A stretch of 45,194 bases of DNA from Kordiimonadaceae bacterium. Its GTDB lineage: Bacteria; Pseudomonadota; Alphaproteobacteria; Sphingomonadales; Kordiimonadaceae. The position numbers and the translations under genes are program-made. The stretch covers positions 1 to 45,194 of the forward strand of contig JABABO010000058.1 of assembly GCA_014238195.1 (NCBI GenBank). The letters are read 5' to 3'. Shown here piece by piece: positions 15,304-38,259 of this stretch. Position 1 is the stretch's first letter, and each line of letters begins with the position of its first letter. The notes under the pieces are model-generated. The model made no database searches and was not told the DNA's origin. It saw only the letters and a list, made by a program, of their open reading frames with translations.

Positions 15304-15310
15304 AGGTGAC

Positions 15311-21180: not shown

Positions 21181-22119
21181 GTGAAAAAAAACGAGCAGAA
21201 AATTCACATGCCCTCGTTTGCAACATTGAGAAGTTTTGAATGTGCAGCACGTCATGAAAGCTTTACCCTAGCTTCGGAAGAGCTGCACCTTACGCAAAGC
21301 GCGATCAGCCGACAGATAAAGGAACTGGAAGCTATAACGGGCATTATACTTTTCAGGCGTGTTGGAAGACGTGTGGTGTTAACCGATGCAGGGCGGGTGC
21401 TTGCGAAGGATATTTCTGTTGATCTTGAACGGGTGTATGAAACCGTTTCTCGTGCGGTATTGGCAGGAAATGAGCGATCAGTTTTGAAGGTTGCGGCCTT
21501 ACCCACTCTTGCTGATCGGTGGTTGATTCCGCGCTTACCTAGGTTCATAAATCAAAATCCAGACATAAAAATTAGCATGTCTACACGGCTGGAACCTTTT
21601 GATCTGAACAAAGAAAGATTTGACATGGCAATCCATTTTGGTGCTGCAGATTGGCCTGATACCAAAATGGTAAAACTGTTTACAGAAAAATTGTTTGCAG
21701 TGGCTTCAGTGGCTTTTAAGAATCAGCATAACATCAATGACGAAATAACTATAAACGAAGTCCCCCTGCTAAACCTGAATTCACGGCCAAACGATTGGAG
21801 TGACTGGTTTAGTAATATTGGCACCAACATTGGTCATATTAACTACGCCATGCAGTTCGATCAGTTTTCTATGATAACTGCCGCCGCCAATGCGTCTTTG
21901 GGCGCTGCTCTCCTGCCGTCCTATTTAATAGAAAAAGAGCTCGCAAATAGAGATCTAGTGTGTCTTAGCAAAACGCCGTTATTGACCGAAAATAAATATT
22001 TTGTCGTCACGCCATCGGGTAATGAAAACCCACAAGTCAACAAATTTATACAATGGATTAAATCGGAAATTGCATCTGGTCTGGCTTTTCCTATGGCGGA
22101 ACAAGATGCAACACTATAG
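21181..22119 (+). CDS. LysR-family transcriptional regulator (GcvA-like)
   Basis: HTH region FATLRSFECAARHESFTLASEELHLTQSAISRQIKELE. GTG 21181 has AGGGGGA upstream; ATG 21208 is an alternative start. The stop codon TAG (22117-22119) lies inside the 106-bp repeat. Confidence 0.88.
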   Translation: MKKNEQKIHMPSFATLRSFECAARHESFTLASEELHLTQSAISRQIKELEAITGIILFRRVGRRVVLTDAGRVLAKDISVDLERVYETVSRAVLAGNERSVLKVAALPTLADRWLIPRLPRFINQNPDIKISMSTRLEPFDLNKERFDMAIHFGAADWPDTKMVKLFTEKLFAVASVAFKNQHNINDEITINEVPLLNLNSRPNDWSDWFSNIGTNIGHINYAMQFDQFSMITAAANASLGAALLPSYLIEKELANRDLVCLSKTPLLTENKYFVVTPSGNENPQVNKFIQWIKSEIASGLAFPMAEQDATL

Positions 22120-22220
22120 CGAGACCAATGAATAATGAGTTCATTATTTATTGAGGAGTCGAACCGACATAAATACTTATAGCCAATTGAGGTGATCAAT
22201 ATTCACCGCAATTGGTTATA
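22115..22220 (+). repeat. Copy A of a 106-bp hairpin-rich repeat element (partner at 35616-35721)
   Basis: Gap-free alignment to 35616-35721 with about 10 mismatches in 106 nt. It contains CAATGAATAATGA-gt-TCATTATTTATTG and TATAGCCAATTGAGGTGA-tcaatat-TCACCGCAATTGGTTATA inverted repeats. Confidence 0.9.
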
Positions 22221-22230
22221 TGAACAGCCT

Positions 22231-23193
22231 TTAGAAATCCCGTCGCAGCGCTGTTACCATTTCTAGGGTCGCAGTGGCCAGATTAATACGGTCCTGAAGC
22301 GAGCGCATGATAACATTTGTGTTTTCAACCGCTATGCCCAGCTCCTCGATTTCACTTGTGAGGGAGGTATCGGTATCATCTATAATCCAGCCATCAACAA
22401 TGTCTTGATAATGGGCCGCGATCTGCCGGCTTGAACAGGCCAAGCCAAGCTCCTGCATGATTTTTGATGTTGGCCCTTTGAGCGAATCACCAGCAACAAC
22501 GGGCGATATACCAATAACACAGGCTTTGCTGGCGGCCAGCAGGTCACGTACATTTGGTAAGGCTAATATGGGTTCCATGCTCAAGTACGGATTGGATGGA
22601 CATAAAATAAAGGCATCAATGGTGTCGCTTTCTAGTAACTGTTGGAACCGACTGGTGGGCAGAGCCGTTTCAATACCGTCAAATGAAATCTCTCGCACGG
22701 CAGGTTTGCATTGGTGCTTTACAAAATATTCCTGAAAATCAAGGATGCCGTCATCGGTTGTTATCCTCGTTCGGACAGGGTCGTCGCTCATGGGAATGAT
22801 TTGATTGTTTATGCCGCGTCTGCGTGCGAGTTGCTGTGTTATGTCGCTCAGTGACATACCAGCTTGAAGCGCAGCCGTGCGATAAACGTTGGTGGCTAGG
22901 TCCTTGTCGCCAAGTTGGAACCATGTCTCGCCGCCAAGCTCTTTTAGTGCGGACATAAACGACCAAGTTTCGCCATTTCTACCCCAGCCAGTTTTCGGAT
23001 TTTCCAGACCAGACAGTGTATAAAGCAAAGTGTCAATATCAGGGGAAATATGAAGCCCCAAATGCTGAAAATCGTCGCCTGTATTGACCACAAGGCTTAG
23101 GTTTTCTGGGGATAGAACTTTGGTCAAACCCAATGCTAGCTTCGCCCCACCCACGCCGCCTGTAAGGGCAACTATGTTAAGGTCTTTGCTCAC
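22231..23193 (-). CDS. cofD: 2-phospho-L-lactate transferase (F420 biosynthesis, CofD/FbiA)
   Basis: N-terminal signature ALTGGVGGAKLALGL...VVNTGDDFQHLGLHISPDIDTLLYTL. Confidence 0.9.
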   Translation of the reverse strand: MSKDLNIVALTGGVGGAKLALGLTKVLSPENLSLVVNTGDDFQHLGLHISPDIDTLLYTLSGLENPKTGWGRNGETWSFMSALKELGGETWFQLGDKDLATNVYRTAALQAGMSLSDITQQLARRRGINNQIIPMSDDPVRTRITTDDGILDFQEYFVKHQCKPAVREISFDGIETALPTSRFQQLLESDTIDAFILCPSNPYLSMEPILALPNVRDLLAASKACVIGISPVVAGDSLKGPTSKIMQELGLACSSRQIAAHYQDIVDGWIIDDTDTSLTSEIEELGIAVENTNVIMRSLQDRINLATATLEMVTALRRDF

Positions 23194-23990
23194 TGAAATA
23201 AATCCCGGTCTTTTGGTCTTACCAAGGGCGCTGTGTGCACTGCTGGATCAAGCCTTGAAACGTTAAGGCCCCGTAAAACAACGGCTGGCTTGCCTTCTGC
23301 CCCTTGCCCCATCAGTAGCGCCGCTGCCGCCGCCACTTCGTCTGCGATAGCCACTTCGGAAACACGAAGTTCACGGCCATATAAGTCTATTGAAGCGCGT
23401 AAATCCACAACAGCTGGTATCCCAGCAATACCGATTGCGTGTCCTGCTATCCCGTTTCTCCAAGCCCTGCCAATACTGTCGCTCACAATAACCGCAATAT
23501 TGACACCCAAGCGTTTTTTGAGCTCTGCTTGCAAATCACTCGCGGATTTATCTGGGTCAACGGGCAACAGTAACGCCGTATTATCCGTAACATTTGACTG
23601 GTCAATGCCAGCGTTGGCCATCACGAAACCAAGGGTGTGCCTAACAATAACAAGGCCGTCCATCTGGCGAACAACTTCGGATGATTCGCTCAAGATAAGC
23701 TCAACAAGTCGCGGGTCTTTACCCGTTTCATCTGCGAGCTTGCATGCAGCAGGGGAAGGGGTGACAGATTTTAGCTGGACCAAGCGCCCTTCTGCTTTCG
23801 AGACTATCTTTTGGGCAAGAACTAAGACGTCATTGTCGCGCAGTTCAATGTTAGTAGCGCTAAGCCCTTGCGTGATAATATCAGCAAGATTGTCCCCTTC
23901 ATTGACCATGGGGATGCCTGCAAGCGCATTAAGTTCAACATGGTCAGCCGTATAATCTTGGCTCAAGATATTTTCCTTTTTGGCAGCCAT
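23190..23990 (-). CDS. cofE: Coenzyme F420-0:L-glutamate ligase (CofE; ligase domain only)
   Basis: 266 aa, with AGIPMVNEGDNLADII and LVLAQKIVSKAEGR motifs typical of CofE. There is no C-terminal nitroreductase-like domain. An ATGA overlap joins it to cofD. Confidence 0.85.
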   Translation of the reverse strand: MAAKKENILSQDYTADHVELNALAGIPMVNEGDNLADIITQGLSATNIELRDNDVLVLAQKIVSKAEGRLVQLKSVTPSPAACKLADETGKDPRLVELILSESSEVVRQMDGLVIVRHTLGFVMANAGIDQSNVTDNTALLLPVDPDKSASDLQAELKKRLGVNIAVIVSDSIGRAWRNGIAGHAIGIAGIPAVVDLRASIDLYGRELRVSEVAIADEVAAAAALLMGQGAEGKPAVVLRGLNVSRLDPAVHTAPLVRPKDRDLFQ

Positions 23991-26353
23991 TTGGGCACAT
24001 TGTTTACCAAAGGTTTCAAGGGCTGTTCCTTTAATACATGGTCAAGGCGGCGGTCATCTATTTTGTTATACAGTGTGGTGCGTTGCTGGGGGGTGCGGTT
24101 AATGTCCCTGATCAGCTGCTCCATCTGTGCAGCAGAACATTCCTGACCATGTTGGCTACCAGCAGCCCTACTGATACTTTCGTTCATCAAGGTACCACCT
24201 AGGTCGTTGCAGCCAGCCTGCAGACATGCTTTCGCACCGTCCAACCCCATCTTTGTCCATGAGGTTTGAATATTGTCGATAAAAGGGTTTAAAACCAGTC
24301 GGGCAACAGCATGCATTAGGACAGCTTCACGGTAAGTCGGGCCAGACCGTGCTTGCCCCCTTAAATAGACGGGTGCTTCCATATGAACAAAGGGTAACGG
24401 GACAAATTCTGTGATGCCGCCTGTTTCTGCTTGTAGATGCCGCAGGTGCAGTAGGTGCCGTGCCCAGTGTATCGGCTTTTCGATATGACCAAACATAATA
24501 GTGGAGGTCGTTTTTAGTCCAACCTTGTGTGCTGTAGATATGACATCCAGCCATTCTTCAGTGCCCAATTTATCTGAGCATATTTGTGTACGAATTTCAT
24601 CATCGAGTATTTCTGCGGCTGTACCTGGTAATGAATTTAACCCTGCTTGCTTCAACTGTTCCAGAAAATTGGCAACTGTCATGCCGTTGGTTTTTGCGCC
24701 TTGGGAAACTTCAAGTGCTGAAAATGCATGGATGTGCATTTCTGGCACGGCTGCTTTGATTGCCCGGCATATTTCAAGATATGTTTCGCCTGTATAGTCG
24801 GGATGAATACCCCCTTGCAGACACACTTCTGTTGCGCCGCGGTCATACGCCTCACGGGCTCTGCGCGCGATCTCATCCAGTTCCAAGTCATACGCTTTGC
24901 CGCGCAGCTTTTCATTCTTCTTACCTTTGGAAAATGCACAGAAAGTGCATTTAAAGGTGCAGACATTTGTATAGTTGATATTTCTGTTAATGACGTATGT
25001 CACCTTGTCCCCTACGTGCGACCGTCTCAGATTGTCAGCTGCGGTGCAGACCATTGTAAAGGCTTCACCCCTCGTCTTAAAAAGCTGTACAATTTCGCCT
25101 TCGGACAGCTCGTCACCACTGGTGCACCGTGAAAGAAGGGATTGCAAAGTTTGACCTTGCGGTGCTGATCTGCTGACCTGTTTTATAGGCACAGCAGTTT
25201 TAATGTTTGGTATGGCAATATTTTGGCCAGGTGACCAAGCGTCTTCCTTTGGGTAGCCTTCGCTGTCGGTACACTGGGTTACAGGTGTCAAAAATTTGCG
25301 ATCAAGCCATTTTTCGGTATTCTCGGTATACTCAGGATAAACAGCTAATCGTTCCACAAGTTCTTTACCTGCGTCCTGTATTTGCTGTCGCAGGACTTCT
25401 ATGTGGGGCCAAGGTGCTTCTGGGTTCACAAAATCTGGGGTAACTGGTGACACACCGCCCAGATCGTTTATCCCAGCGGTAATCAGTTGATGCAGCTCAC
25501 CCTTATTCAAATTAGGTGGTGCTTGGATATTCATCGTGCTGCCAAAGATCAGACGGGTTGCTGCGATGGTCCAGACAAGCTCATCTATGGTGGCGGCGGG
25601 CGCATCTGACATTTTTGTATCGGGTTTTGGACAAAAGTTTTGAATGATAATTTCTTGTATATGCCCATATTCAAGATGCAGGTCATGTAAGGCACGAAGC
25701 GACTGCAATCTTTCTTTCCTAGTTTCGCCGATTCCAATCAAAATACCAGAAGTGAATGGCACTCCCAGCTTTCCAGCTTGGCGAATAGTTTCCAAACGTA
25801 TGGCGGGGTTTTTGTCTGGTGATCCGTAGTGCGGGCCGCCTTTCTCGCATAGTCTTTGTGAGATGTTTTCCAGCATCAACCCCTGCGAAATCGATACTTT
25901 CCTGAGCATGGCGATTTCTTCGCCAGACATCACACCAGCATTGATATGAGGAAAGAGCCCAGTTTCCTTGAAAACCAGTTCCGCCATCTCTGCAACATAT
26001 TCGAGCGTTGTACTATGGCCCAGTTTGGCCAATTCCTGACGTGCGACTTTGTATCTCAGTTCGGGTTTGTCACCTAAGGTAAATAAAGCTTCCTTGCACC
26101 CAGCTGCGGCCCCTGCGCGTGCCACCGCCAATACTTCGTCGCGTGACATATAGGCACTTTGCAGGTTGCGCGGCGTTTTTGCATACGTACAGTAATGACA
26201 CGTGTCTCTGCAAAGCCGTGTGAGCGGAATGAATACTTTCTTTGAAAAACTGATGGTTTCGCCGTGAGTTTTATTGCGAAGCTGTTGTGCAATGTCGAGC
26301 ATATCATGCGTCGCTGTATCCGCTGTGACCGAAAAGTTAGAAGTTTCAAACAT
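23963..26353 (-). CDS. fbiC: Bifunctional FO synthase FbiC (CofG + CofH radical-SAM domains)
   Basis: 796 aa with two CxxxCxxC radical-SAM motifs, CRDTCHYCTY (N-terminal half) and CTFKCTFCAF (C-terminal half). Confidence 0.93.
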   Translation of the reverse strand: MFETSNFSVTADTATHDMLDIAQQLRNKTHGETISFSKKVFIPLTRLCRDTCHYCTYAKTPRNLQSAYMSRDEVLAVARAGAAAGCKEALFTLGDKPELRYKVARQELAKLGHSTTLEYVAEMAELVFKETGLFPHINAGVMSGEEIAMLRKVSISQGLMLENISQRLCEKGGPHYGSPDKNPAIRLETIRQAGKLGVPFTSGILIGIGETRKERLQSLRALHDLHLEYGHIQEIIIQNFCPKPDTKMSDAPAATIDELVWTIAATRLIFGSTMNIQAPPNLNKGELHQLITAGINDLGGVSPVTPDFVNPEAPWPHIEVLRQQIQDAGKELVERLAVYPEYTENTEKWLDRKFLTPVTQCTDSEGYPKEDAWSPGQNIAIPNIKTAVPIKQVSRSAPQGQTLQSLLSRCTSGDELSEGEIVQLFKTRGEAFTMVCTAADNLRRSHVGDKVTYVINRNINYTNVCTFKCTFCAFSKGKKNEKLRGKAYDLELDEIARRAREAYDRGATEVCLQGGIHPDYTGETYLEICRAIKAAVPEMHIHAFSALEVSQGAKTNGMTVANFLEQLKQAGLNSLPGTAAEILDDEIRTQICSDKLGTEEWLDVISTAHKVGLKTTSTIMFGHIEKPIHWARHLLHLRHLQAETGGITEFVPLPFVHMEAPVYLRGQARSGPTYREAVLMHAVARLVLNPFIDNIQTSWTKMGLDGAKACLQAGCNDLGGTLMNESISRAAGSQHGQECSAAQMEQLIRDINRTPQQRTTLYNKIDDRRLDHVLKEQPLKPLVNNVPKWLPKRKIS

Positions 26354-27102
26354 TAAACGCCTCCCGCTAACCTAGTTTCATCAGTGAAATAATTTGGTTC
26401 ATAGGCGATATCAGCGTTACAGGTTTCCTGAATTTTGTCAGCAATGCCACTGGTTGATACATAGTGTTGCGTGTGCGATGAACAGCGCCGCTTCATCAGC
26501 GCGGCGATATCTTCTTCTGTATCTATATCCAGCCCCAAACCATCTAGTTTTTCAATGTTTACAGTCAGACCGCTTTTATGGGCAGATTTCTGGGCAAGCT
26601 GTCTGTGCTTTTCAAAGGAATTGAGGCCAAACGAAAATGGGATCACCGAACGGCGTGAACAAGCAATACTATTGGTCCCAGTACAAGCTTGGTCGGGAAC
26701 AATAGTGATGCCCCTATGTGTCAGAAGATTCTGACAAACCTGATCTATTTCTTGACTGGTAACCAGTGGAACATCACCTGGAAGTGTTATGATATTCGCA
26801 ACACCGTCATCAAATAGGGCTTGCGCTGCCATCTCAACCGATGCTGAAAGGCCAATGTCACCGTCTGTTCTGATAACACGACCACCGAATAATTGAGCGC
26901 GGGATATAGTATAGTCATCACAGGTAACGACGACCAGACCCTTAAGAAAACGGGCCCCGTTAATTGCAATCAGAACATCTTCAAACATTTTTTCAGACAG
27001 GGCCTGACGTTCGAATTTGGACAAACTATGCCCTAAGCGCTGCTTGGCTAAATGACGTGATTTTAATGGCAAGATAGCCCATATTTGATCATCAGACTGC
27101 AC
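26353..27102 (-). CDS. cofC: Phospholactate / phosphoenolpyruvate guanylyltransferase (CofC/FbiD)
   Basis: ILPLKSRHLAKQRLG, TGTNSI, FGLNSFEKH and LDIDTEEDI match the CofC pattern. A 1-nt TAATG overlap joins it to fbiC. Confidence 0.82.
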   Translation of the reverse strand: MQSDDQIWAILPLKSRHLAKQRLGHSLSKFERQALSEKMFEDVLIAINGARFLKGLVVVTCDDYTISRAQLFGGRVIRTDGDIGLSASVEMAAQALFDDGVANIITLPGDVPLVTSQEIDQVCQNLLTHRGITIVPDQACTGTNSIACSRRSVIPFSFGLNSFEKHRQLAQKSAHKSGLTVNIEKLDGLGLDIDTEEDIAALMKRRCSSHTQHYVSTSGIADKIQETCNADIAYEPNYFTDETRLAGGV

Positions 27103-27773
27103 TAATCGGTTCCAGTAATTTTTATTCCTGCACCATGAATTCCGTATTTTTTGTTAAGGAAAATAAGCACGGATGTCAATGCTTCACCCACGACAGAATT
27201 ATCAATTGGCCCAGCATGCCAGCCACGAAGACCTGTTGCCTCTACCAGTTGTAATACTTGCTCGCGAGCATCATTGCTATTACCAAATACCAGCACGTGA
27301 CTGTCATCTTGAGAATTTTCATCTTGCAAATGAGCTGCGGCGACATTGTGAAATGCTGAGACGACCTTAACATTATCACCGAGAAAAGTTTGTGCCGACT
27401 TGGCAACCGGCCATTCATCGGTTAGCTGAACTCGGGCAACCTTTGGCGGCACTAAGGGTACCGTTGTATCAACCAGAATTTTGCCTTGGACTGCATCCTT
27501 AATATCTTCAAGTGTTGAATTGTGATGCGCGTTTGGTACGGTGAGCACAACAATGTCTGCTCCCAGTGCGGCTTCCACATTACTAGCGGCCCTAACAGTA
27601 GAAGAGGGAACTTTCTCTTTTAAAGCCGCTGCTGCTGCGATTGCTTTGTCTTCAGACCGTGAACCAATGACAACATCATATCCTGCCAGTATCCAACGAT
27701 AGGCAAGGCCAGAACCAAGGGAGCCTGTTCCTCCCAATACTGCTATGCGCGGGCGTGTTTGTGAATCTGTCAT
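27102..27773 (-). CDS. fno: NADPH-dependent F420 reductase (Fno/NpdG)
   Basis: 223 aa with the Rossmann start IAVLGGTGSLGSGLAYRWILAGYDVVIGSRSEDKA. It is embedded between the thioesterase and cofC genes with overlapping stop/start codons. Confidence 0.82.
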   Translation of the reverse strand: MTDSQTRPRIAVLGGTGSLGSGLAYRWILAGYDVVIGSRSEDKAIAAAAALKEKVPSSTVRAASNVEAALGADIVVLTVPNAHHNSTLEDIKDAVQGKILVDTTVPLVPPKVARVQLTDEWPVAKSAQTFLGDNVKVVSAFHNVAAAHLQDENSQDDSHVLVFGNSNDAREQVLQLVEATGLRGWHAGPIDNSVVGEALTSVLIFLNKKYGIHGAGIKITGTD

Positions 27774-28222
27774 GTTTCATTTCCTTTTTTAGCCGTGAAA
27801 TTCTTATTTTCTAACATAGAGTAGCAGGCCCGTCCAACCGCAATAAGCCGCTCATTTTTATTGAATACATCGACATCAATAAGCGCAATTGATCGGCCTG
27901 ACTTGCGAATGTGCGCGTTAACAACCAGATCTGTATCATGACCTGGGTATAGATAGTCAGTCCTAAAGTTAACCGTTGGTCCAAGCTCGTCAGCCACCAT
28001 GAGAAGGGCGTAGCAGCCAACTGAATCTATCGCTGCTGAAATGGCACCGCCATGCCACTGGTTTGTGCCAGGTTGCCGCTCCAGTGTTTTGGACATTTTT
28101 AGCTTAGCGCTGAGTGTAAGGGTCTCATAGTCAATGCTTGTAATCTCGGGCGTGAAAAGTTGATGAAACTTTGATTTTTCTATCTGTGCCTGAATGTCCG
28201 AACATGTAAGTTGATTTGACAT
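27770..28222 (-). CDS. PaaI-type hotdog-fold thioesterase
   Basis: 150 aa with the WHGGAISAAIDSVGCYA motif characteristic of PaaI/4HBT-class thioesterases. Confidence 0.75.
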   Translation of the reverse strand: MSNQLTCSDIQAQIEKSKFHQLFTPEITSIDYETLTLSAKLKMSKTLERQPGTNQWHGGAISAAIDSVGCYALLMVADELGPTVNFRTDYLYPGHDTDLVVNAHIRKSGRSIALIDVDVFNKNERLIAVGRACYSMLENKNFTAKKGNET

Positions 28223-28232
28223 AATTATCCAT

Positions 28233-29165
28233 TCAGACAGCTGTCATCTTTTGTAATTCTGGTAAGATTTCAGTCGCGAATTTCTCGACGTACGCCATCC
28301 TTTCTTCAGGAGGCATAACAAGCGCTATAATCAGGTGATTGGTCCCTGCCTTAACATAGTCTGCCAAGGTCTCAATGATACGCTCATTGGGGCCGTACGC
28401 ACAATATTTGTCTACAATCTTTTCAAACGGCATGTTGAACCTGTATGATAATTGCTCAATTGCTCTGTTCCGAGCCTCTTCCACATCGTCATGTTGGCTG
28501 ATATACATGAATGTTGTGTAAGCAAAATCTGAAGGGAGTTCCCTTCCCAGATCATCCGCAAAGCCACGGACTTTAAAAATTGATTCTTTGAGCTGATCAG
28601 GCGTGTACATGTAGGGCTGCCAGCCATCACCCAAACGTGCAGCGCGGCGCATAGCAGGATCACTTCGACCACAGACCCAAAGAGGGGGTCCATCCTTTTG
28701 ATAAGGACCTGGCAACATCTCAACATCTTTTAATTGGAAAATTTTCCCGTCATAGCTAAAAGGTTCCCCAGCCCAATATTTACGCATGATTTCAATGCCC
28801 TCATTGGTACGGACCCCTCTTTCTTTCATAGAAACGCCCAAAGCTTCAAATTCGCGAGGATAGTCCCCCCCAATGCCAACAGATGCGATCAATCGGCCCT
28901 TTGACAGGATGTCAATCGACGTCAATTCTTTTGCCATCATAGTGGGGTTTCTCAACGGGAAAATGAGAGTAGACGGCAACAGTTTAATGCGTTTGGTCAC
29001 AGCTGCAGCATAGGAAAGAACTGTCACAGTATCCAAAATTGGCCGAAAAAACAGAATATGCTCACCTGTTGTTAAAATATCGAAACCGTGCTCTTCCACT
29101 TTCGATATCTGTTCAGGTTCCCAAACGTCTCCATCAATATGAAACCCTATTTGAATTCTTGGCAT
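28233..29165 (-). CDS. Luciferase-like monooxygenase (LLM) class oxidoreductase, probably F420-dependent
   Basis: 310-aa LLM fold pattern (LSKGRLIASVGIGGDYPREFEALG, GPPLWVCGRS..RRAARLGDGWQPY). F420 dependence is inferred from context. Confidence 0.7.
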   Translation of the reverse strand: MPRIQIGFHIDGDVWEPEQISKVEEHGFDILTTGEHILFFRPILDTVTVLSYAAAVTKRIKLLPSTLIFPLRNPTMMAKELTSIDILSKGRLIASVGIGGDYPREFEALGVSMKERGVRTNEGIEIMRKYWAGEPFSYDGKIFQLKDVEMLPGPYQKDGPPLWVCGRSDPAMRRAARLGDGWQPYMYTPDQLKESIFKVRGFADDLGRELPSDFAYTTFMYISQHDDVEEARNRAIEQLSYRFNMPFEKIVDKYCAYGPNERIIETLADYVKAGTNHLIIALVMPPEERMAYVEKFATEILPELQKMTAV

Positions 29166-29194
29166 CGCGATTCTCCTTAGAACAAAGTCAACGG

Positions 29195-30688
29195 TTATGC
29201 GTTGAGCTTGCTTAAAACATATTCCTCAACAATTTCACGGCGTACTTTGCCTATAGCAGACAAAGGTATCATATCAATCTCGGTTAAAAATTCTGGCCAT
29301 TTGGCTTTATCCAAACCAGCTGCCGCGCAATGTGCACATAGATCGTCTAAGTTAACGGGCTCTGACGGGACAATAACCGCAGCTAAGCGTGATCCAAGCC
29401 TGTCATCGGGATACCCGACAATGGATACATCTGTAATCGCTGGATGCCTAAGAAGGACGTCCTCGGTTTCTAACGGTGAGATATTCTCTCCGCCGCGAAG
29501 TATAATGTCGCGGGCACGGCCACTCATGCTGATATAGCCATTATCAAGTTGAACAGCAGCATCGCCAGTTTTGTACCAGCCGTCTTCTCCCAAGCGATTG
29601 TCATGATCACCAGTCCAGTATCCCGTCATCATCTGAAACGGGCTATGGATTTCAAGTTCGCCGTCCCTGATCCGGACGCTGGTTCCTGGCAGCGCCCGAC
29701 CGTCGGTATACAAGCGTTCATCCAGTGTAGCATCAGGATCAACAGCGGTAACCGCCCCAGCCTCGGATGTGCCAAAATATGCCCATATTTCGCACTCTGG
29801 CATCGCTTTATAGGCACGTCGTTTCAACTCAGCGGGAACAGGTGCACCTGATGACGGGAAGTATTTAAGTGATTGGATCCGGCTGGTACCGTGTTCCTCA
29901 ACATATGTCACCATATCGACAAGAAACGGTGTAGGTGCAGCGGTAAAAGTACATTTATAGCGTTCAATTAGCTCAACGGCTGTCTCTACCCGCCAGCGTG
30001 AAACAAGAATCATCGGCGCATTGAGCGCCAAAGCCATCTTGACCCCAAAAAGAAGACCAACCGCATGGCCGACGGGCGACGAAACAAGGATCGGATCATC
30101 TTTGCTTAGGCTAAAGCGCTCAATGAAAACGTCTGTCTGGCGTTCAAATGTAGCATATGTATGCTTAGCTGCTTTTGGTGTGCCAGTTGTGCCAGACGTA
30201 CAGGCAAACCATCCCAGCTCATTGGCTGTTCGTTTTGGCGGTGCTTTTGGGCCTATAGGCGCTTCCACATCCTGAAAGCGTCGTTCCCCCAATTTTTCAA
30301 AAATAGGGTTATCGCCGACCAGATGTTCGGTCAAAATGACGCTTGCAGCGTCAAGAATATCGCCCAACTCCACGATACTTTTGCCCGCAGACCAAGGAAG
30401 GTTTATAAATATCGCACCACACAGTCGGGTAGCAAGATAATCGACAATATATTCAATAACATTTGGCCGGGCGACTATAACACGGCTGCCGACGGTTACC
30501 CCTTGAGCGATTAACTGCCCCGCCCGCTTGCGCGACTGTTCAATTAATTCCCCAACCGTGATTGTGCGATCTAGCTCTGCAATCGCAAGAGAGCCCGCAG
30601 GGCGTGCGCACAAGCGATCCCATTCTTCCCTAGCAAAATCTCTTTGACTTACATCAGGGTAATCGATGACACTTGAGAGTGTTGTCAT
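29195..30688 (-). CDS. AMP-dependent synthetase/ligase (acyl-CoA synthetase family)
   Basis: Adenylate-forming core motifs CTSGTTGTPKAAKHTY and GWYKTGD, plus the C-terminal lysine region GKVRR. Confidence 0.88.
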   Translation of the reverse strand: MTTLSSVIDYPDVSQRDFAREEWDRLCARPAGSLAIAELDRTITVGELIEQSRKRAGQLIAQGVTVGSRVIVARPNVIEYIVDYLATRLCGAIFINLPWSAGKSIVELGDILDAASVILTEHLVGDNPIFEKLGERRFQDVEAPIGPKAPPKRTANELGWFACTSGTTGTPKAAKHTYATFERQTDVFIERFSLSKDDPILVSSPVGHAVGLLFGVKMALALNAPMILVSRWRVETAVELIERYKCTFTAAPTPFLVDMVTYVEEHGTSRIQSLKYFPSSGAPVPAELKRRAYKAMPECEIWAYFGTSEAGAVTAVDPDATLDERLYTDGRALPGTSVRIRDGELEIHSPFQMMTGYWTGDHDNRLGEDGWYKTGDAAVQLDNGYISMSGRARDIILRGGENISPLETEDVLLRHPAITDVSIVGYPDDRLGSRLAAVIVPSEPVNLDDLCAHCAAAGLDKAKWPEFLTEIDMIPLSAIGKVRREIVEEYVLSKLNA

Positions 30689-30691
30689 AAC

Positions 30692-31711
30692 CTATATCTT
30701 CTTAATTTCCGTAACAAGTTTCTGAATATCGCTATCAGATAACCCGTCAAACCATGTTTCATCGATCTGGATACGGTGGACATAGGCGCCATATCGTTTC
30801 TTAAGCGCAGCAGGCAAGTTTTCTGGCTTTTCAATCACAGCATAGGCCTCAAGCATCTTATCGGACACTAAATGCGCCATTTCTTGCCATCTTTGTTCGC
30901 GCGCCATTTCGATGAAATCACCGAGGTTTACATCCCAGCCATGCATATCCAGCATTTTTTCATATTCTGGCGTGGAGGCATAAAGCGCCACGCGCTCCTT
31001 CAAGCCAAGGCGTACACGGTCAAGACCTTCATCTGTTGTTGCACAACCAATGAAACCATAACTGCCACGGTCAATGTCATTTAATGAACGTCCAGCTTTT
31101 TCAGCGCCGATTTCAAGGTTTGGCAGCATGACCTCTTCATACCATTTATAGGTAATGGGATCCCCAGGTAAATGCCCATCGGCCATTTTCCCCGTAAGCT
31201 GACACATCAGTTTGTTAATCGCAGCAAGATGAATGGGGGGCCGTTTAAAACCAAGAGGACCAGGATTATAATAAGGGATCATAAGGTCATGCTTATAATA
31301 TTCCCCTTGATAATTCAGTTTTGTACCATGTTCCCAGCAATCCCAGATAGCATGCAGTGCTTCAATATATTCGCGCATTCGCTTCACTGGTGGCAAATGT
31401 TCCATGCCAAAGCGTCGTGTCAAATGTGCCTTGATTTGAGTGCCAATTCCCAGCTGAAAACGACCTTTAGAAAGCGACTGTATAGACCAAGCATCGTAAG
31501 CCGTTGCCATTGGACTTCTTGGAAAGGCGACAAAAACACCCGTCAGTAAATTAACCTTACTGGTTACCATTGAGCCAGCAACAGCTGTAAGCGTTGGCGG
31601 AACTGTTAGTTCCAATAGGGTGGTGCCATCGTAGCCTAACTTTTCTGCGCGTGCTATTGCATCAGGCATTTCTTCTAGACGTTTGGGTCGTACCATAGAA
31701 TATACTTGCAT
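30692..31711 (-). CDS. LLM class oxidoreductase, probably F420-dependent
   Basis: 339-aa LLM fold (LSKGRFQLGIGTQIKAHLTRRFG). It starts 3 nt after the hyuB-like stop. Confidence 0.7.
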   Translation of the reverse strand: MQVYSMVRPKRLEEMPDAIARAEKLGYDGTTLLELTVPPTLTAVAGSMVTSKVNLLTGVFVAFPRSPMATAYDAWSIQSLSKGRFQLGIGTQIKAHLTRRFGMEHLPPVKRMREYIEALHAIWDCWEHGTKLNYQGEYYKHDLMIPYYNPGPLGFKRPPIHLAAINKLMCQLTGKMADGHLPGDPITYKWYEEVMLPNLEIGAEKAGRSLNDIDRGSYGFIGCATTDEGLDRVRLGLKERVALYASTPEYEKMLDMHGWDVNLGDFIEMAREQRWQEMAHLVSDKMLEAYAVIEKPENLPAALKKRYGAYVHRIQIDETWFDGLSDSDIQKLVTEIKKI

Positions 31712-31714
31712 AGC

Positions 31715-33406
31715 TTATGTTTCCCTTTTTACATGCCCATAATATTTTTGAATGAATGTTGGTGAAAACTTCCCACTGTCTTGATCAAGCAAGACACTGT
31801 CTGCTTGGCGTTCTGCCGCGCAGCCGTATCCGCCAGCGCCCGGTGTTTCTACCACTATGTTAGTGCCCTGCGGAACTGGAACTTCGTTTGGCTTGTCATC
31901 AAGCCTTGTTTCATTGGGCCCACAGCGCAAAATAAATTGGCCGGATTTTCCAGCTTCACCACCGAACAATCCCCAAGGCTGATAGCGAAAACGCTCACCT
32001 GCACCATTAAAGACGCATTCATGACCGACGGGCGTAAGGACACGGCGAAGCCCCATCCCGCCACGTTGGCGACCTGCACCGCCAGAATCTTCAACAAAAC
32101 AATATTCAATCACTCTAAGCGGATATTCCTGTTCAATGGATTCAACAGGTAAATTCGAGGTGTTGGTAATGCCGACTTGAACGCCGTCCTTCCCGTCTTT
32201 ATGAGCCCGCGCCCCCATGCCGCCGCCCAGTGTTTCGAAATACACATAAGGCTTGCCATTTCTAGGGTCATTACCAGAGAATACCGCCGTTGTGTTGGCG
32301 CCGTTTGCCGCGGCAATTACGTGTTCAGGCAGTGCTTTCGAGATCGCGCCCAACACGACGTCAATAACCCGTTGGCAAGCGTGTGCCCGTGCAGCAACTG
32401 GTGCAGGGAAGACAGAATTTAACAAGGTACCAGGCTCGGCTAAAATTTCAACGACATCCAAAACACCTTGATTGCTTGGCATGTCAGCGTCAAGAGACGC
32501 AATCAAAGCATAACACACACTGGCCTGAACTGCGTTGAGGGTCGTATTAATATTGCCCCTTACCTGCAAACTTGTGCCTGCAAAATCCACACATATCTTA
32601 TCGCCTTTAACTGTTATGGATACGTGAATAGGGATGTCAAATGTCGATACGCCGTCCCCATCCATAAAGTCTTCAAATTCATACGTACCATCAGGTATTT
32701 GGCTAATAGCAGCTTTCATTCTGAGTGCAGTCCGCGCGATAATTTCATCAAATGTTGCAAGAATTTTGGGTAGGCCGTGCACGTCTACAACTTCCTGAAA
32801 ACGACGCGCTCCAAGCTTGCATGACGCTATTTGGGCGTTGTGGTCACCCTTGCGTTCCTCTGGTACGCGCACATTCAGCATCAAGATGTCCATAACATCT
32901 GTTTGAAGTTCACCGCGGGAAAACAATTTTACCGCAGGTATCCTCAAACCTTCCTGAAATATCTCAGTCATGCCGCCAGCCATCGATCCTGGGACCATGC
33001 CACCAATGTCCGCATGGTGTGCAATATTACAAACGAATGCTGCCAATTCTCCACCAACAAACAAAGGCATCGCGTAGTTGATGTCGGGCAAGTGCGTACC
33101 CCCAGCAACATAGGGATCATTGGCAACAAAAATATCGCCTTCATGAATATCGGAGCCATATTTGCTGAGAACACTTTTCATCATGCCGCCCATAGAGGCA
33201 ATATGGATGGGGAGCGTCATGGCAGCCTGAACAACCAATCGCCCTGACTTGTCAACAATAACGATAGAATGATCATTGCGCTCTTTAATATTCGTAGAGA
33301 AAGCTGACCGCATAAGAGCAACAAAACATTCATCGGCGATAGATCGCAAACTGTTTGAAATAATTTCCAAGCTAATGGGGTCTAGTTTTTGTGGCTGGGT
33401 ATTCAT
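31715..33406 (-). CDS. Hydantoinase B / oxoprolinase family protein
   Basis: 563 aa. N-terminal LDPISLEIISNSLRSIADE and internal NDPYVAGGTHLPD are typical of the HyuB family. A 1-nt TAATG overlap joins it to the A subunit. Confidence 0.88.
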   Translation of the reverse strand: MNTQPQKLDPISLEIISNSLRSIADECFVALMRSAFSTNIKERNDHSIVIVDKSGRLVVQAAMTLPIHIASMGGMMKSVLSKYGSDIHEGDIFVANDPYVAGGTHLPDINYAMPLFVGGELAAFVCNIAHHADIGGMVPGSMAGGMTEIFQEGLRIPAVKLFSRGELQTDVMDILMLNVRVPEERKGDHNAQIASCKLGARRFQEVVDVHGLPKILATFDEIIARTALRMKAAISQIPDGTYEFEDFMDGDGVSTFDIPIHVSITVKGDKICVDFAGTSLQVRGNINTTLNAVQASVCYALIASLDADMPSNQGVLDVVEILAEPGTLLNSVFPAPVAARAHACQRVIDVVLGAISKALPEHVIAAANGANTTAVFSGNDPRNGKPYVYFETLGGGMGARAHKDGKDGVQVGITNTSNLPVESIEQEYPLRVIEYCFVEDSGGAGRQRGGMGLRRVLTPVGHECVFNGAGERFRYQPWGLFGGEAGKSGQFILRCGPNETRLDDKPNEVPVPQGTNIVVETPGAGGYGCAAERQADSVLLDQDSGKFSPTFIQKYYGHVKRET

Positions 33407-35481
33407 TATTTTGCTCCCGGATCAATTTGGATAATTAGGTGCCCGTCCGGCGTTACCTCAGCATAGTCACCTGGGTAGATAGGTGTTGTTGTATCTAACT
33501 GTTCAATGATGGCTGGGCCGTGGATAGTGTGACCAGGTCGCAAGTCAACACGTGAATAAACATTTGTTTCGAAAGAATTTTCAGGGTCGCTAAAATATAC
33601 CTGTCGAGTTTCACGTGGCTGTAGAGTGTCATCCACTGTCTTTTCCAGCTGGGCAGTCGTTTCCCTATAGAGCTGCGCAGTCGCCGACATGCGAATGTTC
33701 ACAACCTCAATGGCATCGTCTATACTTGAATAACCATAAGCCATTTCATGAGCATCGCAGAAGTTGGCTTGCAGCCCATCCAATGTTGGCAGGTCATCCG
33801 CTGTCAAATTATTACCTTCAGCAACGGGGACTGCTAACTCAAAGTTCTGCCCCATATAACGAGCATCAACCACGAGCTGTAGTTGCCTGTTTTCAGCGGG
33901 TACATTTTCGTCATCAAACCAGATTTCAGCCGCACCCTTTAAGGATGTGAGGGAGCGAGCCAATATCGCCAAACCCTTTTCATCGACCATAAATCGGCGG
34001 CTTTCAACAAAAGCTTCTTTCAGATCTGAAACCAACAAGCCCTGTGCACAGACGATACCCGGGGATGCTGGTACAACGATCTCACGCATACCAAGGCTGA
34101 CAGCCACATCACGCGCATGGAGCGGCCCCGCACCACCAAACGGCATCAATACGAAGTCCCGCGGATCATGTCCGCGCTCCACAGAGATCATTCTAATTGT
34201 TCGCACCATATTTGCGACAACAATGCCAAGGGCGCCATGCGCTGTTCGCTCAACAGAAAAACCAAGCTGATCTGCCAATTCCTTGTAGGCATCAATTGAT
34301 AACTTGGGGTCCAGCCCCATATCACCGTCCAAAAGTCCGCGCGATGAAAGGCGCCCCAGCAATAAGTTTGCATCTGTTGTCGTTGGCTTGGTGCCGCCAC
34401 GCCCATAACAGGCAGGACCTGGGGCTGCGCCAGCACTAATTGGACCAACCTTTAACAGTCCATCCCGGTCAAACCACGCAATGGACCCACCGCCAGCACC
34501 AACTGTTTCCACATCGACACAAGGCAGGCGTATTGGAAACCCAGTCACATCACGATCAAAGGTCAAATCTACGCTAAAATCACGAATAAGGGCGACATCA
34601 GCACTGGTTCCGCCCATATCAAGTGTAATGACATTTCGACGATCTGTTTGCATCGAGACATGCCCAGCCCCTACAGCGCCCGCAGCGGGGCCAGACAGGG
34701 CTGTCCGTATAGGAAACTCTCTGGAAGTTTTGGGGGACATTAATCCACCACTAGACTGATTTATACCCAGAGAGGCATCAGGGGCACGGTCGCTAATGCC
34801 GTCTTCAAGTGTCTGCAGGTATCCCCACATAACGGGTTGAAGGTATGCATTCAGCACCGTCGTTGACAGGCGCTCATATTCGCGAAACTCTGGTTGAACC
34901 TCAGACGAGAGCGAGAGAACGATCTCTGGTGCGCGTTTGCGTAACGCTTGTGCTACAAGTTTTTCGTGCGCGTCATTACGAAAGGCAAACAAAAATCCGA
35001 TAGCGCAGGCTGAAGCACCAGACGCTATGACTTGATCCACCACAGCATCAATATCTTCTGCCGTCGGCTCCACCACGACCTGACCCGCAGCATCCATTCT
35101 CTCATGCAGTTCAAATCGTTGCTCGCGGTCAACGAGCGGAGCAGGATGATCTTTTTGCAGGTCATACATATGGGGCCTAGTCTGCCGACCAATTTCCAAC
35201 AAATCACGGAATCCCTTGGTGGTAATCAGGGCCACTGTACTTCCCGTTCTTTGAATGAGCGCATTTGTCCCAACCGTCGTACCGTGGGAGAGACGCTCTA
35301 TCTCAGCTAAGGGAATGTCATAATGCTTACAAAGCGCATCTAAGCCGCCCAGTATAGCATCCGCGGGATTGGAGGGCGTTGACGATGTTTTCCAAACATG
35401 CGTCGTCCCGTTCTTACTATTGGTTGCGTAAAAATCGGTAAACGTTCCACCTACATCAACACCTATAATCCAACTCATCAA
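33406..35481 (-). CDS. Hydantoinase A / oxoprolinase family protein (ATP-dependent)
   Basis: 691 aa. IIGVDVGGTFTDF at the N-terminus and DMGGTSADV are ASKHA-fold motifs of the HyuA family. Confidence 0.88.
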   Translation of the reverse strand: MMSWIIGVDVGGTFTDFYATNSKNGTTHVWKTSSTPSNPADAILGGLDALCKHYDIPLAEIERLSHGTTVGTNALIQRTGSTVALITTKGFRDLLEIGRQTRPHMYDLQKDHPAPLVDREQRFELHERMDAAGQVVVEPTAEDIDAVVDQVIASGASACAIGFLFAFRNDAHEKLVAQALRKRAPEIVLSLSSEVQPEFREYERLSTTVLNAYLQPVMWGYLQTLEDGISDRAPDASLGINQSSGGLMSPKTSREFPIRTALSGPAAGAVGAGHVSMQTDRRNVITLDMGGTSADVALIRDFSVDLTFDRDVTGFPIRLPCVDVETVGAGGGSIAWFDRDGLLKVGPISAGAAPGPACYGRGGTKPTTTDANLLLGRLSSRGLLDGDMGLDPKLSIDAYKELADQLGFSVERTAHGALGIVVANMVRTIRMISVERGHDPRDFVLMPFGGAGPLHARDVAVSLGMREIVVPASPGIVCAQGLLVSDLKEAFVESRRFMVDEKGLAILARSLTSLKGAAEIWFDDENVPAENRQLQLVVDARYMGQNFELAVPVAEGNNLTADDLPTLDGLQANFCDAHEMAYGYSSIDDAIEVVNIRMSATAQLYRETTAQLEKTVDDTLQPRETRQVYFSDPENSFETNVYSRVDLRPGHTIHGPAIIEQLDTTTPIYPGDYAEVTPDGHLIIQIDPGAK

Positions 35482-35533
35482 TCACACTTTCTATATGGAT
35501 GGTTTCAAAAAACTTTACGTAACTTATAAATAC

Positions 35534-35562
35534 GTAGTATACTACACATAATGCTGAGTCAA
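35534..35562 (-). promoter_or_regulatory. Candidate promoter and operator of the hyuA-to-cofD operon
   Basis: On the minus strand, TTGACT (35562-35557) is followed by a 15-nt spacer and TATACT (35541-36). The perfect 12-bp palindrome GTAGTATACTAC (35534-35545) overlaps the -10. The spacer is shorter than optimal. Confidence 0.4.
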
Positions 35563-35615
35563 TATGTAGATTGTGGATTTAGTATTTTTTTTATAAACAA
35601 TGATAAGCAGAGCTA

Positions 35616-35721
35616 TATAGCGAGACCGATGAATAATGAGGTCATTATTTATTGGTAAGTCGAACCGGCACAAAGACTTATAGCCAAATGAGGTGATCAA
35701 TATTCACCGCAATTGGCTATA
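35616..35721 (+). repeat. Copy B of the 106-bp hairpin-rich repeat element (partner at 22115-22220)
   Basis: Same orientation and length as copy A. Stem sequences are conserved while the loop of the first hairpin differs (gt vs gg). Confidence 0.9.
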
Positions 35722-35753
35722 AGTCTGGAAAAACTGTTCGTTTGGGGAAATTA

Positions 35754-35786: not shown

Positions 35787-35831
35787 CAAGTTTAGTCTAA
35801 AGAAGTATAGTTTGTAGAAAAGAGGATTTAT

Positions 35832-36329
35832 ATGTCGGAACAAGTCGTGAAACGTCGCACTTTTAAGAAACTGTGGAGTCGCCCCGGATATCTGATTCGG
35901 CGATTACATCAAATACATGTGGCGATGTTCCTAGATGAATGCGCAGAATTTAAACTGACGCCAGTACAATTTGCTGTTTTAACCGTTTTGGACAGTGATG
36001 GTGTTCTGGATCAAATCTCTGTAGCCAAACAAATAAGTGCAGATCGTAATACTGTTGGCGATGTGTTAAGGCGTCTGGAATCTCGAGGCTTGATTGAACG
36101 CCCTGCAAGCGAAAATGACCGCCGTGCGAAACTTGCTCAAATTACCGAGAAGGGACGTAGTTTTGTCGAATCAGTGTTGCCATCTATGATAAAAGTACAA
36201 CGGGACCTCACAAGCGTTCTTACGAGGGAAGAAAATGCTGTACTGACCGACCTTTTGGTGAAACTGATAAAAGCAAATAAGGAAGCAAGTCGGTCTCCAA
36301 AGTCCAAGGACATTTCATTCGACCTTTAG
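35832..36329 (+). CDS. MarR-family transcriptional regulator
   Basis: 165 aa with a winged-helix region LTPVQFAVLTVLDSDGVLDQISVAKQISADRNTVGDVLRRLESRGLIER. Confidence 0.88.
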   Translation: MSEQVVKRRTFKKLWSRPGYLIRRLHQIHVAMFLDECAEFKLTPVQFAVLTVLDSDGVLDQISVAKQISADRNTVGDVLRRLESRGLIERPASENDRRAKLAQITEKGRSFVESVLPSMIKVQRDLTSVLTREENAVLTDLLVKLIKANKEASRSPKSKDISFDL

Positions 36330-36372: not shown

Positions 36373-37683
36373 CTAAATGATGCTTGAAAGCCAAGTAACG
36401 GTCGATGGGAACGCAATCATGATCGCCATCCCTAAAAGGTAGATCAAGATGAAAGGTATCACCGCTTGAAAAACATGGTGCAGCGACATTGAGGGCGTGG
36501 TGGCTTTAAATGCGAAAAGCGTATAGCCAAACGGTGGCGTTATGGCTCCCAAAGTAATATTGATCAAAAAGAGCAACCAAAACCATACTGGATCAAATCC
36601 GCTTTCCTGAATAAGAGGCTGATAAATTGGGATCGAAATAAGTATGACTGCGATTGTATCGATGAAGATGCACAGCAGGAATGGAATCAGCATCATAATA
36701 AGCAGGAGCGAAATTGAGGACAGGCCCAAGCCATTGATCATGTTGACGAGGTGGGTTGGGGCGCCAGTGTAGGCCAGCATCTGAGTAAACATCTTTGATG
36801 CCGCCATAATGATCAGAATCATAGTTGAAATCGATACGGTGCTCAAAATCGATTCTTTTATCATATCAGCACTAAGTTGCCGGTATATGCTTGCAGTAAT
36901 AATTGCGCCAATAACCCCCGTTGCAGCAGATTCTGAAGGGGTGGCAATGCCCAGCATAATAACGCCCATCACAAAGAAAATAACGATCAAAAAAGGGAGC
37001 AATTGCAAAGTTGCTTTGGTGCGGGAAATCTGTTGCTCGCCGTCTTCAGGCATGTCAAGTGTCGGCGCTAAAGCAGGATTTATTTTGATCCGTATGAATA
37101 TATATATCAGCAATAATGAGCACATCAAAAGCCCAGGAACAATGCCTGCGATAAGCAGTTTGGCGATTGAAACACTGGCAAGTGACCCAATAATGATAGC
37201 CAACAGGCTTGGGGGGATAATGGGGGCTAGGCTGGCACCAGCCAAAATAAGCCCAGCTGAGAGGCGCTGATCATAGCCGCGGCGTTCCATACCAGGCATG
37301 ATGGACCGGCCAAGCATTGCGGCGACTGCCATGGCAACACCAGATAAAGCGCCGAAAATTGCTGAAAGTAATGTCACTAATATATATTGCCGACCTTGTA
37401 CACGCCCAACCAGCCGGTCAACTGAATCAAACAGGACCTCCATGCTGCCAGACCGAAAAAGTATTTCGCCCATGAGAATAAATATAGGGATCGTTGCAAG
37501 TGACGTGCTGCTCAGTGTCGCATAAAAGCTGTTTGGAACAATCACATAGGCCTCAGGCCCCATGAGAGACCCAACCCCGACGACCGATACGATAAGAAAC
37601 GCGACAAAGATTGGTATTCCAACCATAAACTGGGCAATCAACGCACCAAATAGCAACACCAATATCCAATACCATTCCATCAT
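36373..37683 (-). CDS. TRAP transporter large permease (DctM family)
   Basis: 436-aa polytopic membrane protein. An ATGA overlap joins it to the small-permease gene. Confidence 0.88.
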   Translation of the reverse strand: MMEWYWILVLLFGALIAQFMVGIPIFVAFLIVSVVGVGSLMGPEAYVIVPNSFYATLSSTSLATIPIFILMGEILFRSGSMEVLFDSVDRLVGRVQGRQYILVTLLSAIFGALSGVAMAVAAMLGRSIMPGMERRGYDQRLSAGLILAGASLAPIIPPSLLAIIIGSLASVSIAKLLIAGIVPGLLMCSLLLIYIFIRIKINPALAPTLDMPEDGEQQISRTKATLQLLPFLIVIFFVMGVIMLGIATPSESAATGVIGAIITASIYRQLSADMIKESILSTVSISTMILIIMAASKMFTQMLAYTGAPTHLVNMINGLGLSSISLLLIMMLIPFLLCIFIDTIAVILISIPIYQPLIQESGFDPVWFWLLFLINITLGAITPPFGYTLFAFKATTPSMSLHHVFQAVIPFILIYLLGMAIMIAFPSTVTWLSSII

Positions 37684-38243
37684 TCTACTCCCACAGGGTC
37701 AGGGTCATCTGGTTCTGTGCCAGCCATTTCTGTGTCAGCCTGCTTTGTTTCAGGCAGTTCTGTGTCATCATGGGGGGCAAACACGGAATAGAGGAAATAA
37801 AGGCCAGCACTAAAGAAGCTATAGCTGATAATAACGCTCAGCCACCATTTTGGAATGGGATGGTTTCCCATAGTGCTAATATTGTGGATAAACTGGTATA
37901 TATTTTCTTGGGTGCTAAACCACGCGGCGGATACGCACGCCAACACTGCCAGTATGTTCCCCGCACGTCCAACCTGTGTCGCCATTGTAGGTGACATTTT
38001 TTCGGTCAGAAAGGAAACGGCAATATGCCTTTTTTCCTGTGTGATTTTTGGAAATCCAAGAAACACCATGGCGACGAGAAGGTAACTGACCAAATCGCCT
38101 GACCAGCTGGAGGGTGAATTAAAGCCAAATCTGGCGACAACTTGATAGATATAGGAAAGCGTAATCAGTGCAAGCGCAACACCGCTCAGAATGAAAGAAA
38201 GAGCTGTTACCTTATCATGAGCTGACTTTATACCCTGCAACAT
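37680..38243 (-). CDS. TRAP transporter small permease (DctQ family)
   Basis: Four predicted TM helices. I place the start at ATG 38243 (MLQGIKS..), 17 nt after the dctP-like stop. The 232-aa ORF from 38378 would overlap the binding-protein gene by 119 nt. Confidence 0.78.
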   Translation of the reverse strand: MLQGIKSAHDKVTALSFILSGVALALITLSYIYQVVARFGFNSPSSWSGDLVSYLLVAMVFLGFPKITQEKRHIAVSFLTEKMSPTMATQVGRAGNILAVLACVSAAWFSTQENIYQFIHNISTMGNHPIPKWWLSVIISYSFFSAGLYFLYSVFAPHDDTELPETKQADTEMAGTEPDDPDPVGVE

Positions 38244-38259
38244 GTTAAATTCGCCTGTT

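Follow-up and report, generated by a model that had tools for sequence, protein, structure and literature searches.

A 106-nt repeat at both ends of an F420 operon in a Kordiimonadaceae genome very probably belongs to a dispersed, high-copy intergenic family

The repeat pair and its relatives in the source metagenome

The DNA considered here is a 45,194-nt stretch of the genome of a Kordiimonadaceae bacterium (assembly GCA_014238195.1, contig JABABO010000058.1), called the window below, in which an 11-gene F420 operon is bracketed by two copies, A and B, of a 106-nt repeat unit. We consider that A and B very probably inserted independently of each other, as copies of a small non-coding element of about 106 nt that is dispersed through the genome in high copy number. 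The two copies are:

22115..22220, + strand: copy A of the 106-nt repeat, which fills the gap between the convergent genes lysR and cofD
35616..35726, + strand: copy B; its homology to copy A spans 35616-35721, and the stem of its terminal hairpin reaches 35726, 5 nt past the homology

Both stand on the + strand and align without gaps, with 96 of 106 positions identical (90.6%, 10 mismatches; MAFFT and a repeat finder). Each copy is found by nhmmer at E ~1e-34, far beyond chance in 45 kb, and the longest run identical between them is 28 nt. No third copy, full or degenerate, was detected by nhmmer or blastn, either in the window or in the 9.6 kb of scaffold that extend it to the right. Between the copies lie 11 minus-strand genes and their promoter/operator motif (35534-35563); lysR (21181-22119) and marR (35832-36329) lie outside. 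Copy A contains, and supplies, the stop codon of lysR (TAG, 22117-22119), and the stop codon of cofD (22231-22233) follows 10 nt beyond its end. Copy B occupies the intergenic region between the divergent marR and hyuA genes, between the conserved operator/promoter and marR. An earlier note, written from the letters of this DNA alone, had described two ungapped direct repeats of 106 bp with about 10 mismatches, enclosing the 11-gene operon and its promoter to the exclusion of lysR and marR, with the lysR TAG inside copy A and neither integrase nor transposase in the window; the alignment, the map of open reading frames and Pfam domains, and Pfam scans of all sizeable open reading frames agree with it on every one of these points.

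The exact LysR and MarR proteins of the window occur only in the marine-metagenome run SRR11455651 and its ENA assembly (ERZ23487945); a literature search for this sample returned nothing. The Logan k=31 contigs of the run were aligned to either copy at >=80% identity. About 300-320 contigs match the repeat unit, whose summed word depth of 4,300-11,000 compares with 8.6-9.4 in the adjoining DNA. At the left edge of copy A the depth rises from 8.6 to 4,700-11,000 between 22108 and 22120, with the jump at 22114/5, and at the right edge it falls from 3,260 to 9.4 between 22221 and 22228; the 3' half of copy B has a depth of 6,000-10,000, its flanks ~7. When identity is raised to >=95%, the 667-nt bins that contain a copy still average 364-465, whereas every other bin between 12 and 45 kb lies at 6-10. 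Contigs depart into other sequence at the same edges: 14+4+2 just before 22115, 16+7 after 22220/1, and 30+6+9+2 at 35721-5, 30 of them directly after 35721. The flanks of these departing contigs agree at only ~0.4 and are therefore unrelated. The Logan contigs of the locus itself stop inside the copies, at 22143 and 35685, and resume at 22194 and 35695; because A and B share at most 28 identical nt, the words that break k=31 contigs inside both must come from other copies.

The long flank-bearing contigs have a depth of 5.5-9.7, equal to that of the window, which suggests that they derive from the same genome. Dividing the depth on the unit by ~8.6 gives several hundred to ~1,000 copy equivalents, a figure that overlaps among short contigs may inflate up to ~2-fold; the two copies found in ~55 kb suggest the lower end of this estimate. 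These observations point to a dispersed intergenic repeat with hundreds of copies.

Within this family, A and B are not each other's closest relatives. The dinucleotide GG at 22155-6 and the T at 22187 are private to A among the family-wide variants, and the G residues at 35655 and 35668 are private to B; each copy having its own private changes, the two descend separately from a common consensus. At 100% identity the depth is still ~65 over 22115-22142 and ~320 over 22157-22212, so many copies are nearer to A, segment by segment, than B is. The family is highly homogeneous, with 9 positions varying at >=3% of depth. It is also modular and partly clustered: in some sub-families another hairpin module (…CCCTGAGTCCTTGGGAAT…, …CTAAGTCCTTAGGGA…) replaces part of the first hairpin of the unit, with agreeing loose ends at 22148 and 35656, and some contigs carry the unit twice, at a spacing of 29 to ~1,050 nt.

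A repeat of such depth may mislead assemblers, and the flanks of copy A could have been joined from different loci, lysR from one and cofD from another, through the shared unit. The lysR contig does end at 22143 and the cofD contig begins at 22194, with none spanning A; a 1,225-nt contig carries 22115-22199 exactly with another left flank, and coverage is only ~9x. The 64-kb ENA scaffold, however, also joins lysR to the operon, depth and composition are equal on both sides of A, and a typical read pair would span more than the 106 nt of the unit. We find a mis-join decidedly unlikely, and even if it were true the operon would keep one copy at each end, leaving the conclusion on the repeat unaffected.

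The 1,225-nt Logan contig is odd in its own right. Over 85 nt (22115-22199) it is identical to copy A, its left flank is not lysR, it is the only contig with the private GG at 22155-6, and it bears a second, inverted copy at its other end. We considered it as proof of a twin of A elsewhere and rejected it, as the G at 22156 has a depth of only ~9.7, that of a single copy in the genome. Either the contig is an artefact of the assembly graph or it casts some doubt on the lysR-cofD join.

In other collections the unit was not found. Exact-word scans gave no match for a 21-mer from its most conserved part in the GTDB genomes, nor for two of its conserved words in the JGI metagenome contigs, and in the SRA word index either copy was matched by the source run only. 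The best non-self identities of three proteins are 59% for LysR, 65% for MarR and 63% for HisN (an IMPase-family histidinol phosphatase), and the named relatives of HisN are from Kordiimonas and Kordiimonadaceae. Judging from these proteins, the host is probably an alphaproteobacterium near the Kordiimonadales without a sequenced close relative. The repeat family appears to be undescribed and confined to that lineage. A scan of GTDB for synteny based on PurU was of no use, returning only relatives of <=55% identity over the full-length protein, from many classes.

Fold and ends of the repeat unit

Folding of the + strand gives, for each copy, two long hairpins with a 4-bp hairpin between them:

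22126..22153, + strand: hairpin 1 of copy A, 12 bp including one G-U pair (in copy B 35625-35656, 14 pairs)
22158..22168, + strand: central hairpin GUCGaacCGAC of copy A, 4 bp (in copy B 35659-35669)
22178..22220, + strand: hairpin 3 of copy A, 17 bp (in copy B 35674-35726, 21 pairs)

The free energies of the + strand folds are -37 and -48 kcal/mol for A and B (z -7.1 and -10.4). The - strand folds more weakly (z -3.9 and -6.5) because of G-U pairs; hairpin 1 contains one and is therefore stronger on the + strand. DNA folding parameters reproduce the same hairpin picture. The arms of hairpin 3, TATAGCCAA… and …TTGGCTATA, are ~20 nt each, and in copy B this hairpin is the part of the unit with the highest summed metagenome depth. 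An apparent mini-ORF (open reading frame) of 8-9 codons lies in hairpin 1 (22128-22154 and 35629-35658), reading ATG AAT AAT GAG (T/G)TC ATT ATT TAT TGA in A and one codon longer, to TAA, in B; it is probably meaningless.

The unit begins with TATAGC and ends with GCTATA, a perfect 6-nt terminal inverted repeat; TATAGC is found again at the 5' foot of the last hairpin. With gaps allowed, the inverted similarity of the unit ends reaches ~30 nt, an extension that is marginal, being matched by 107 of 2000 shuffles for A and 6 of 2000 for B. Every copy has TA at both ends, where a TA duplication cannot be told from the sequence of the element. When copy A and one TA are deleted in silico, an in-frame TGA is left at the same lysR codon, which is compatible with, and no proof of, a TA target duplication.

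Such stable folds raise the question of whether the copies have been domesticated as cis elements, acting as transcription barriers or RNA stabilisers at lysR/cofD, or as a 5' leader or insulator for marR, a role that would be compatible with a mobile origin. The better-folding + strand is the sense strand of both the lysR 3' end and the region upstream of marR, the lysR/cofD junction has no other terminator, and the family is homogeneous in sequence. We nevertheless think this role unlikely. Neither hairpin has a trailing U-tract and no intrinsic terminator is predicted at either copy; Rfam yields nothing at its gathering thresholds, the best permissive scores being 17-24 bits against thresholds of 63-135; and the family consensus of hairpin 3 has mismatches in place of compensated pairs. 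For a family of hundreds of copies, selfish spread is a simpler account.

The F420 operon, its marR partner and the two insertion sites

The operon occupies 22231..35481 on the - strand, with gaps between its genes all <=29 nt. Assigned from Pfam domains and open reading frames, the genes and control elements of the region are:

21181..22119, + strand: lysR-family (GcvA-like) regulator, divergent from purU (20120-20968)
22231-23193, - strand: cofD
23190-23990, - strand: cofE
23963-26353, - strand: fbiC (cofG/H fusion)
26353-27102, - strand: cofC
27102-27773, - strand: fno
27770-28222, - strand: 4HBT thioesterase
28233-29165, - strand: second luciferase-like monooxygenase (LLM)
29195-30688, - strand: AMP-ligase
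30692-31711, - strand: first LLM
31715-33406, - strand: hyuB
33406-35481, - strand: hyuA
35534-35545, within 35534..35563 (- strand): perfect palindrome GTAGTATACTAC, conserved in three distant genomes
35562-35557, - strand: TTGACT, a -35-like box, in a second shared motif (35556-35563) reading TTGAC(A/T) on the minus strand
35832..36329, + strand: marR-family regulator, divergent from the operon, outside the repeat pair
36373..39369, - strand: TRAP transporter dctM/Q/P, outside the repeat pair

The C-terminal domain of LysR is intact, and its tail is of variable length, as among its homologues.

The closest MarR homologues (61-65% identity) are from a Chromatiales bacterium from Bugula neritina, from GCA_012263305 and from an ENA metagenome contig. 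In 3/3 of these distant genomes marR stands divergent beside hyuA-hyuB-LLM-ligase-LLM-4HBT-fno-cofE-cofD; the version in the window adds cofC and fbiC between fno and cofE. In this cluster of distant marine bacteria, hyuA and hyuB encode parts A and B of a hydantoinase/oxoprolinase, and the two LLM are luciferase-like oxidoreductases of the F420 type. Because marR adjoins the operon in three distant genomes, it is part of the conserved cluster, and on this gene order marR and the operon are taken as one ancestral unit. Beyond marR the context varies, with toxin-antitoxin genes, transposases or, as in the window, a TRAP transporter (L006/L007), which likely belongs to the functional cluster. 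All four marR-hyuA spacers, that of the window and those of the three relatives, share the palindrome GTAGTRTACTAC, followed by TGTCAAT or GAGTCAAT; in the relatives the motif lies at ~9865-9900 (L004), ~9960-10000 (L005) and ~9755-9795 (L006). The palindrome is probably the MarR operator, predicted to overlap the -10 box in the promoter of the hyu/F420 operon. Between copy B and the start of marR (35756-35790) lie three tandem units of 11 nt (GGCAAGTATCT, GGCTAGTATCT, GGCGAGTATCA), and the AGTATC within them resembles the operator half-site.

The repeat unit was found by neither nhmmer nor blastn in the marR-operon loci of the three relatives. Since copy B lies inside the ancestral marR-operon unit, on the marR side of the operator, it was inserted in situ. 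It can then be neither the edge of an incoming cassette nor a terminus of a composite transposon by which the operon arrived.

This bears directly on how a pair of repeats around an operon is to be read. The earlier note had proposed att-like or recombination scars of a horizontally acquired cassette, and had named copies of a dispersed element, one that mediated or could mediate excision or duplication, as the alternative. As attL/attR-like scars, the repeats would mean that the operon arrived by site-specific recombination and a 106-bp attachment site was duplicated. The direct orientation of the copies and their enclosure of the operon with its promoter would suit such scars; F420 genes are known in Alphaproteobacteria and are horizontally mobile (PMC8498797), and the cluster does sit in differing contexts among genomes. 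Yet there are hundreds of copies with unrelated flanks instead of two island ends, there is no integrase, recombinase or transposase domain in any sizeable open reading frame of the window (Pfam), and the conserved partner marR lies outside the pair, so that the repeats do not delimit the transferred unit. A and B are only 90.6% alike, and many other copies match A exactly over long segments. Without the element only ~7-10 nt would separate the stops of lysR and cofD, too little to accommodate an attachment site. Finally, the operon does not differ from its surroundings: its GC content is 48.0% against 45.6-46.0% in the flanks, the ranges of GC at third codon positions overlap, the tetranucleotide correlation (r) is 0.86-0.88 between operon and flanks against 0.91 between the flanks, and word depth across the operon is uniform (7.8-9.6) and the same as in the flanks, with no further repeat spike in 12-45 kb. 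The earlier note had itself counted such likeness in composition, as well as many scattered copies of the repeat, against a cassette. We thus regard the recombination scars as extremely improbable and drop that half of its interpretation; its other half, the dispersed element, is the one that stands, with ~300 contigs that carry the unit amid unrelated flanks.

Two copies of one element family around a cargo of 13.4 kb could also form a composite mobile unit, in which they serve as transposon ends that move the operon, or in which homologous recombination between them deletes or duplicates it. Composite transposons ended by small elements are documented (PMC6382973). Here, however, B separates the operon from marR and its operator, to which it is ancestrally linked, and the outer junctions (CAACAC|TATAGC… and …GCTATA|AGTCTG) share no direct repeat apart from, possibly, TA. 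At 28 nt, the longest stretch of identity comes close to the minimum for recombination by RecA. No deletion or circle joint across 22.2-35.6 kb was found among the contigs of the run, though k=31 contigs cannot show one. A composite unit is, in our judgement, very improbable.

Our preferred reading is that of independent insertions. The element would have colonised intergenic DNA throughout the genome, one copy entering the very narrow space between the convergent lysR and cofD, at the stop codon of lysR, and the other the control region of the divergent marR and hyuA, between the conserved operator and marR. As no gap inside the 13-kb operon exceeds 29 nt, the closest sites at which an insertion is tolerated are its two ends; the bracketing thus follows from a high density of elements and from the tolerated sites, and is uninformative on how the operon arrived. 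A transposase supplied in trans may have spread the element, either as a MITE (miniature inverted-repeat transposable element) with TA duplication or in single-stranded form by an IS200/IS605/RAYT-like route; a TA-duplicating transposase that acts on the terminal inverted repeats and a single-strand enzyme of the IS200/IS605/RAYT type are about equally plausible. Any effects on expression would be side effects; they might arise from hairpins at the 3' end of the transcripts of lysR and cofD, or from the 106 nt by which the distance from the operator to marR has grown.

Several points weigh against this reading. Two copies in ~55 kb predict ~200 per 5-Mb genome, against 500-1,000 from depth, and some of the depth may be due to a second organism in the same sample. 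The join of lysR and cofD across A rests on the assemblers, as no Logan contig spans copy A. No target-site duplication can be made out at the ambiguous TA, and the ~55 kb of readable sequence contain no partner transposase. Given ~13 permissive gaps, we estimate that random insertion would place two copies at opposite ends of one operon, in direct orientation, in ~8% of cases; for a post-hoc observation this is low, though not so low as to demand a special explanation.

A bolder version can be formulated, in which a single unsampled Kordiimonadales-like lineage would carry several hundred to ~1,000 homogeneous copies (~1-2% of the genome), mobilised by an IS200/IS605/RAYT-like or undescribed system, with copies that routinely supply stop codons and transcript-end hairpins and with a pair that occasionally loops out or duplicates the operon. 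We regard this full combination as improbable.

For the locus itself, the independent insertions remove a tempting wrong inference, namely that an operon bracketed by repeats is a mobile cassette: where intergenic repeats are dense, any long operon of closely packed genes can come to look as if it were flanked by att sites. The family is of modest interest to those who study bacterial repeats and for the assembly of this genome, since the repeat is a break point of short-read graphs and a possible site of mis-joins. Biologically, the cluster marR-hyuAB-LLM-ligase-LLM-thioesterase-fno-cofED and its shared operator are arguably of greater interest in this region than the repeats.

The wider surroundings include several other systems. 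On one side of the cluster are purU and the GcvA-like lysR (20120-22119), and on the other a GbdR-like AraC/DJ-1 regulator with soxBDAG (42186-45194, continuing in L045 to ~13783); the two sides are functionally related through one-carbon and sarcosine metabolism. The ~20 kb between them holds the F420 cluster, marR, the TRAP system and a TonB receptor, and if anything was inserted here, the inserted block would be this larger one of ~20 kb. At the left end of the window (1-3591, - strand), a partial open reading frame of >1,197 aa runs off the edge and carries RTX-type GGxGxD nonapeptide repeats as well as about seven repeats of ~70 aa (families D1-D3). A complete Tad/Flp pilus locus follows at 3987-15883, with tadB/C, the cpaF ATPase, cpaE, cpaD, the cpaC secretin, cpaB, a prepilin peptidase and TadE/G-like genes.

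Comparison with known repeat systems

By analogy, the unit resembles MITE/REP-like elements such as Correia, ERIC and REPIN. Like a MITE it is small and non-coding, with many dispersed copies that share sharp common ends; as in the REP/REPIN class, it has short imperfect palindromes, occurs in hundreds of copies and is extragenic, both local copies being intergenic.

Correia elements (NEMIS) of Neisseria are non-coding sequences of ~100-150 bp, present in hundreds of copies that are mostly intergenic and near gene ends; they have TA ends and stable hairpins and are able to alter neighbouring transcripts. Our unit shares their size class, high copy number, intergenic sites near gene ends, TA ends and hairpins. 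It differs in its ends and fold: Correia elements have clear 26-bp terminal inverted repeats and one long hairpin, whereas the unit has a perfect 6-nt repeat with a marginal extension, and two separate hairpins. To our knowledge the two have no sequence similarity, and Correia elements belong to a different bacterial class.

With REP/BIME sequences and REPINs, which RAYT transposases mobilise, the unit has in common its high copy number, its extragenic position and the ~20-nt hairpin arms of hairpin 3, as well as modular sub-families (the loose ends at 22148 and 35656) and clustered copies (29-1,050 nt apart). It is longer than a REP doublet, however, and carries a second, unrelated hairpin. 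The hairpin MITEs derived from IS200/IS605 (palindrome-associated transposable elements) are similar in having a hairpin near each end and no convincing long terminal inverted repeats; the strand-asymmetric folding of the unit and the single orientation of both local copies would also fit this group. In contrast to these elements, the unit has no demonstrable conserved target tetra- or pentanucleotide, its right end is the foot of a hairpin, and its host genome has no known TnpA or TnpB gene.

The attL/attR repeats of genomic islands are comparable as direct repeats at both ends of a block of genes. They are unique to the island, have an integrase beside them and are usually identical to each other, none of which is true of this pair.

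Among elements described in other genomes, MITEAba12 of Acinetobacter is a non-autonomous element of ~113 bp that occupies AT-rich intergenic sites, carries stops in several frames and can fuse to or affect neighbouring genes; its terminal inverted repeats match a co-resident IS (insertion sequence), it generates 9-bp duplications, and 90 copies occur across 31 genomes (PMC6382973). The unit is comparable in size, in its intergenic sites, in its stop codons and in its capacity to fuse to or affect a neighbouring gene, and it would far exceed MITEAba12 in abundance, with hundreds of copies in one genome against those 90 in 31.

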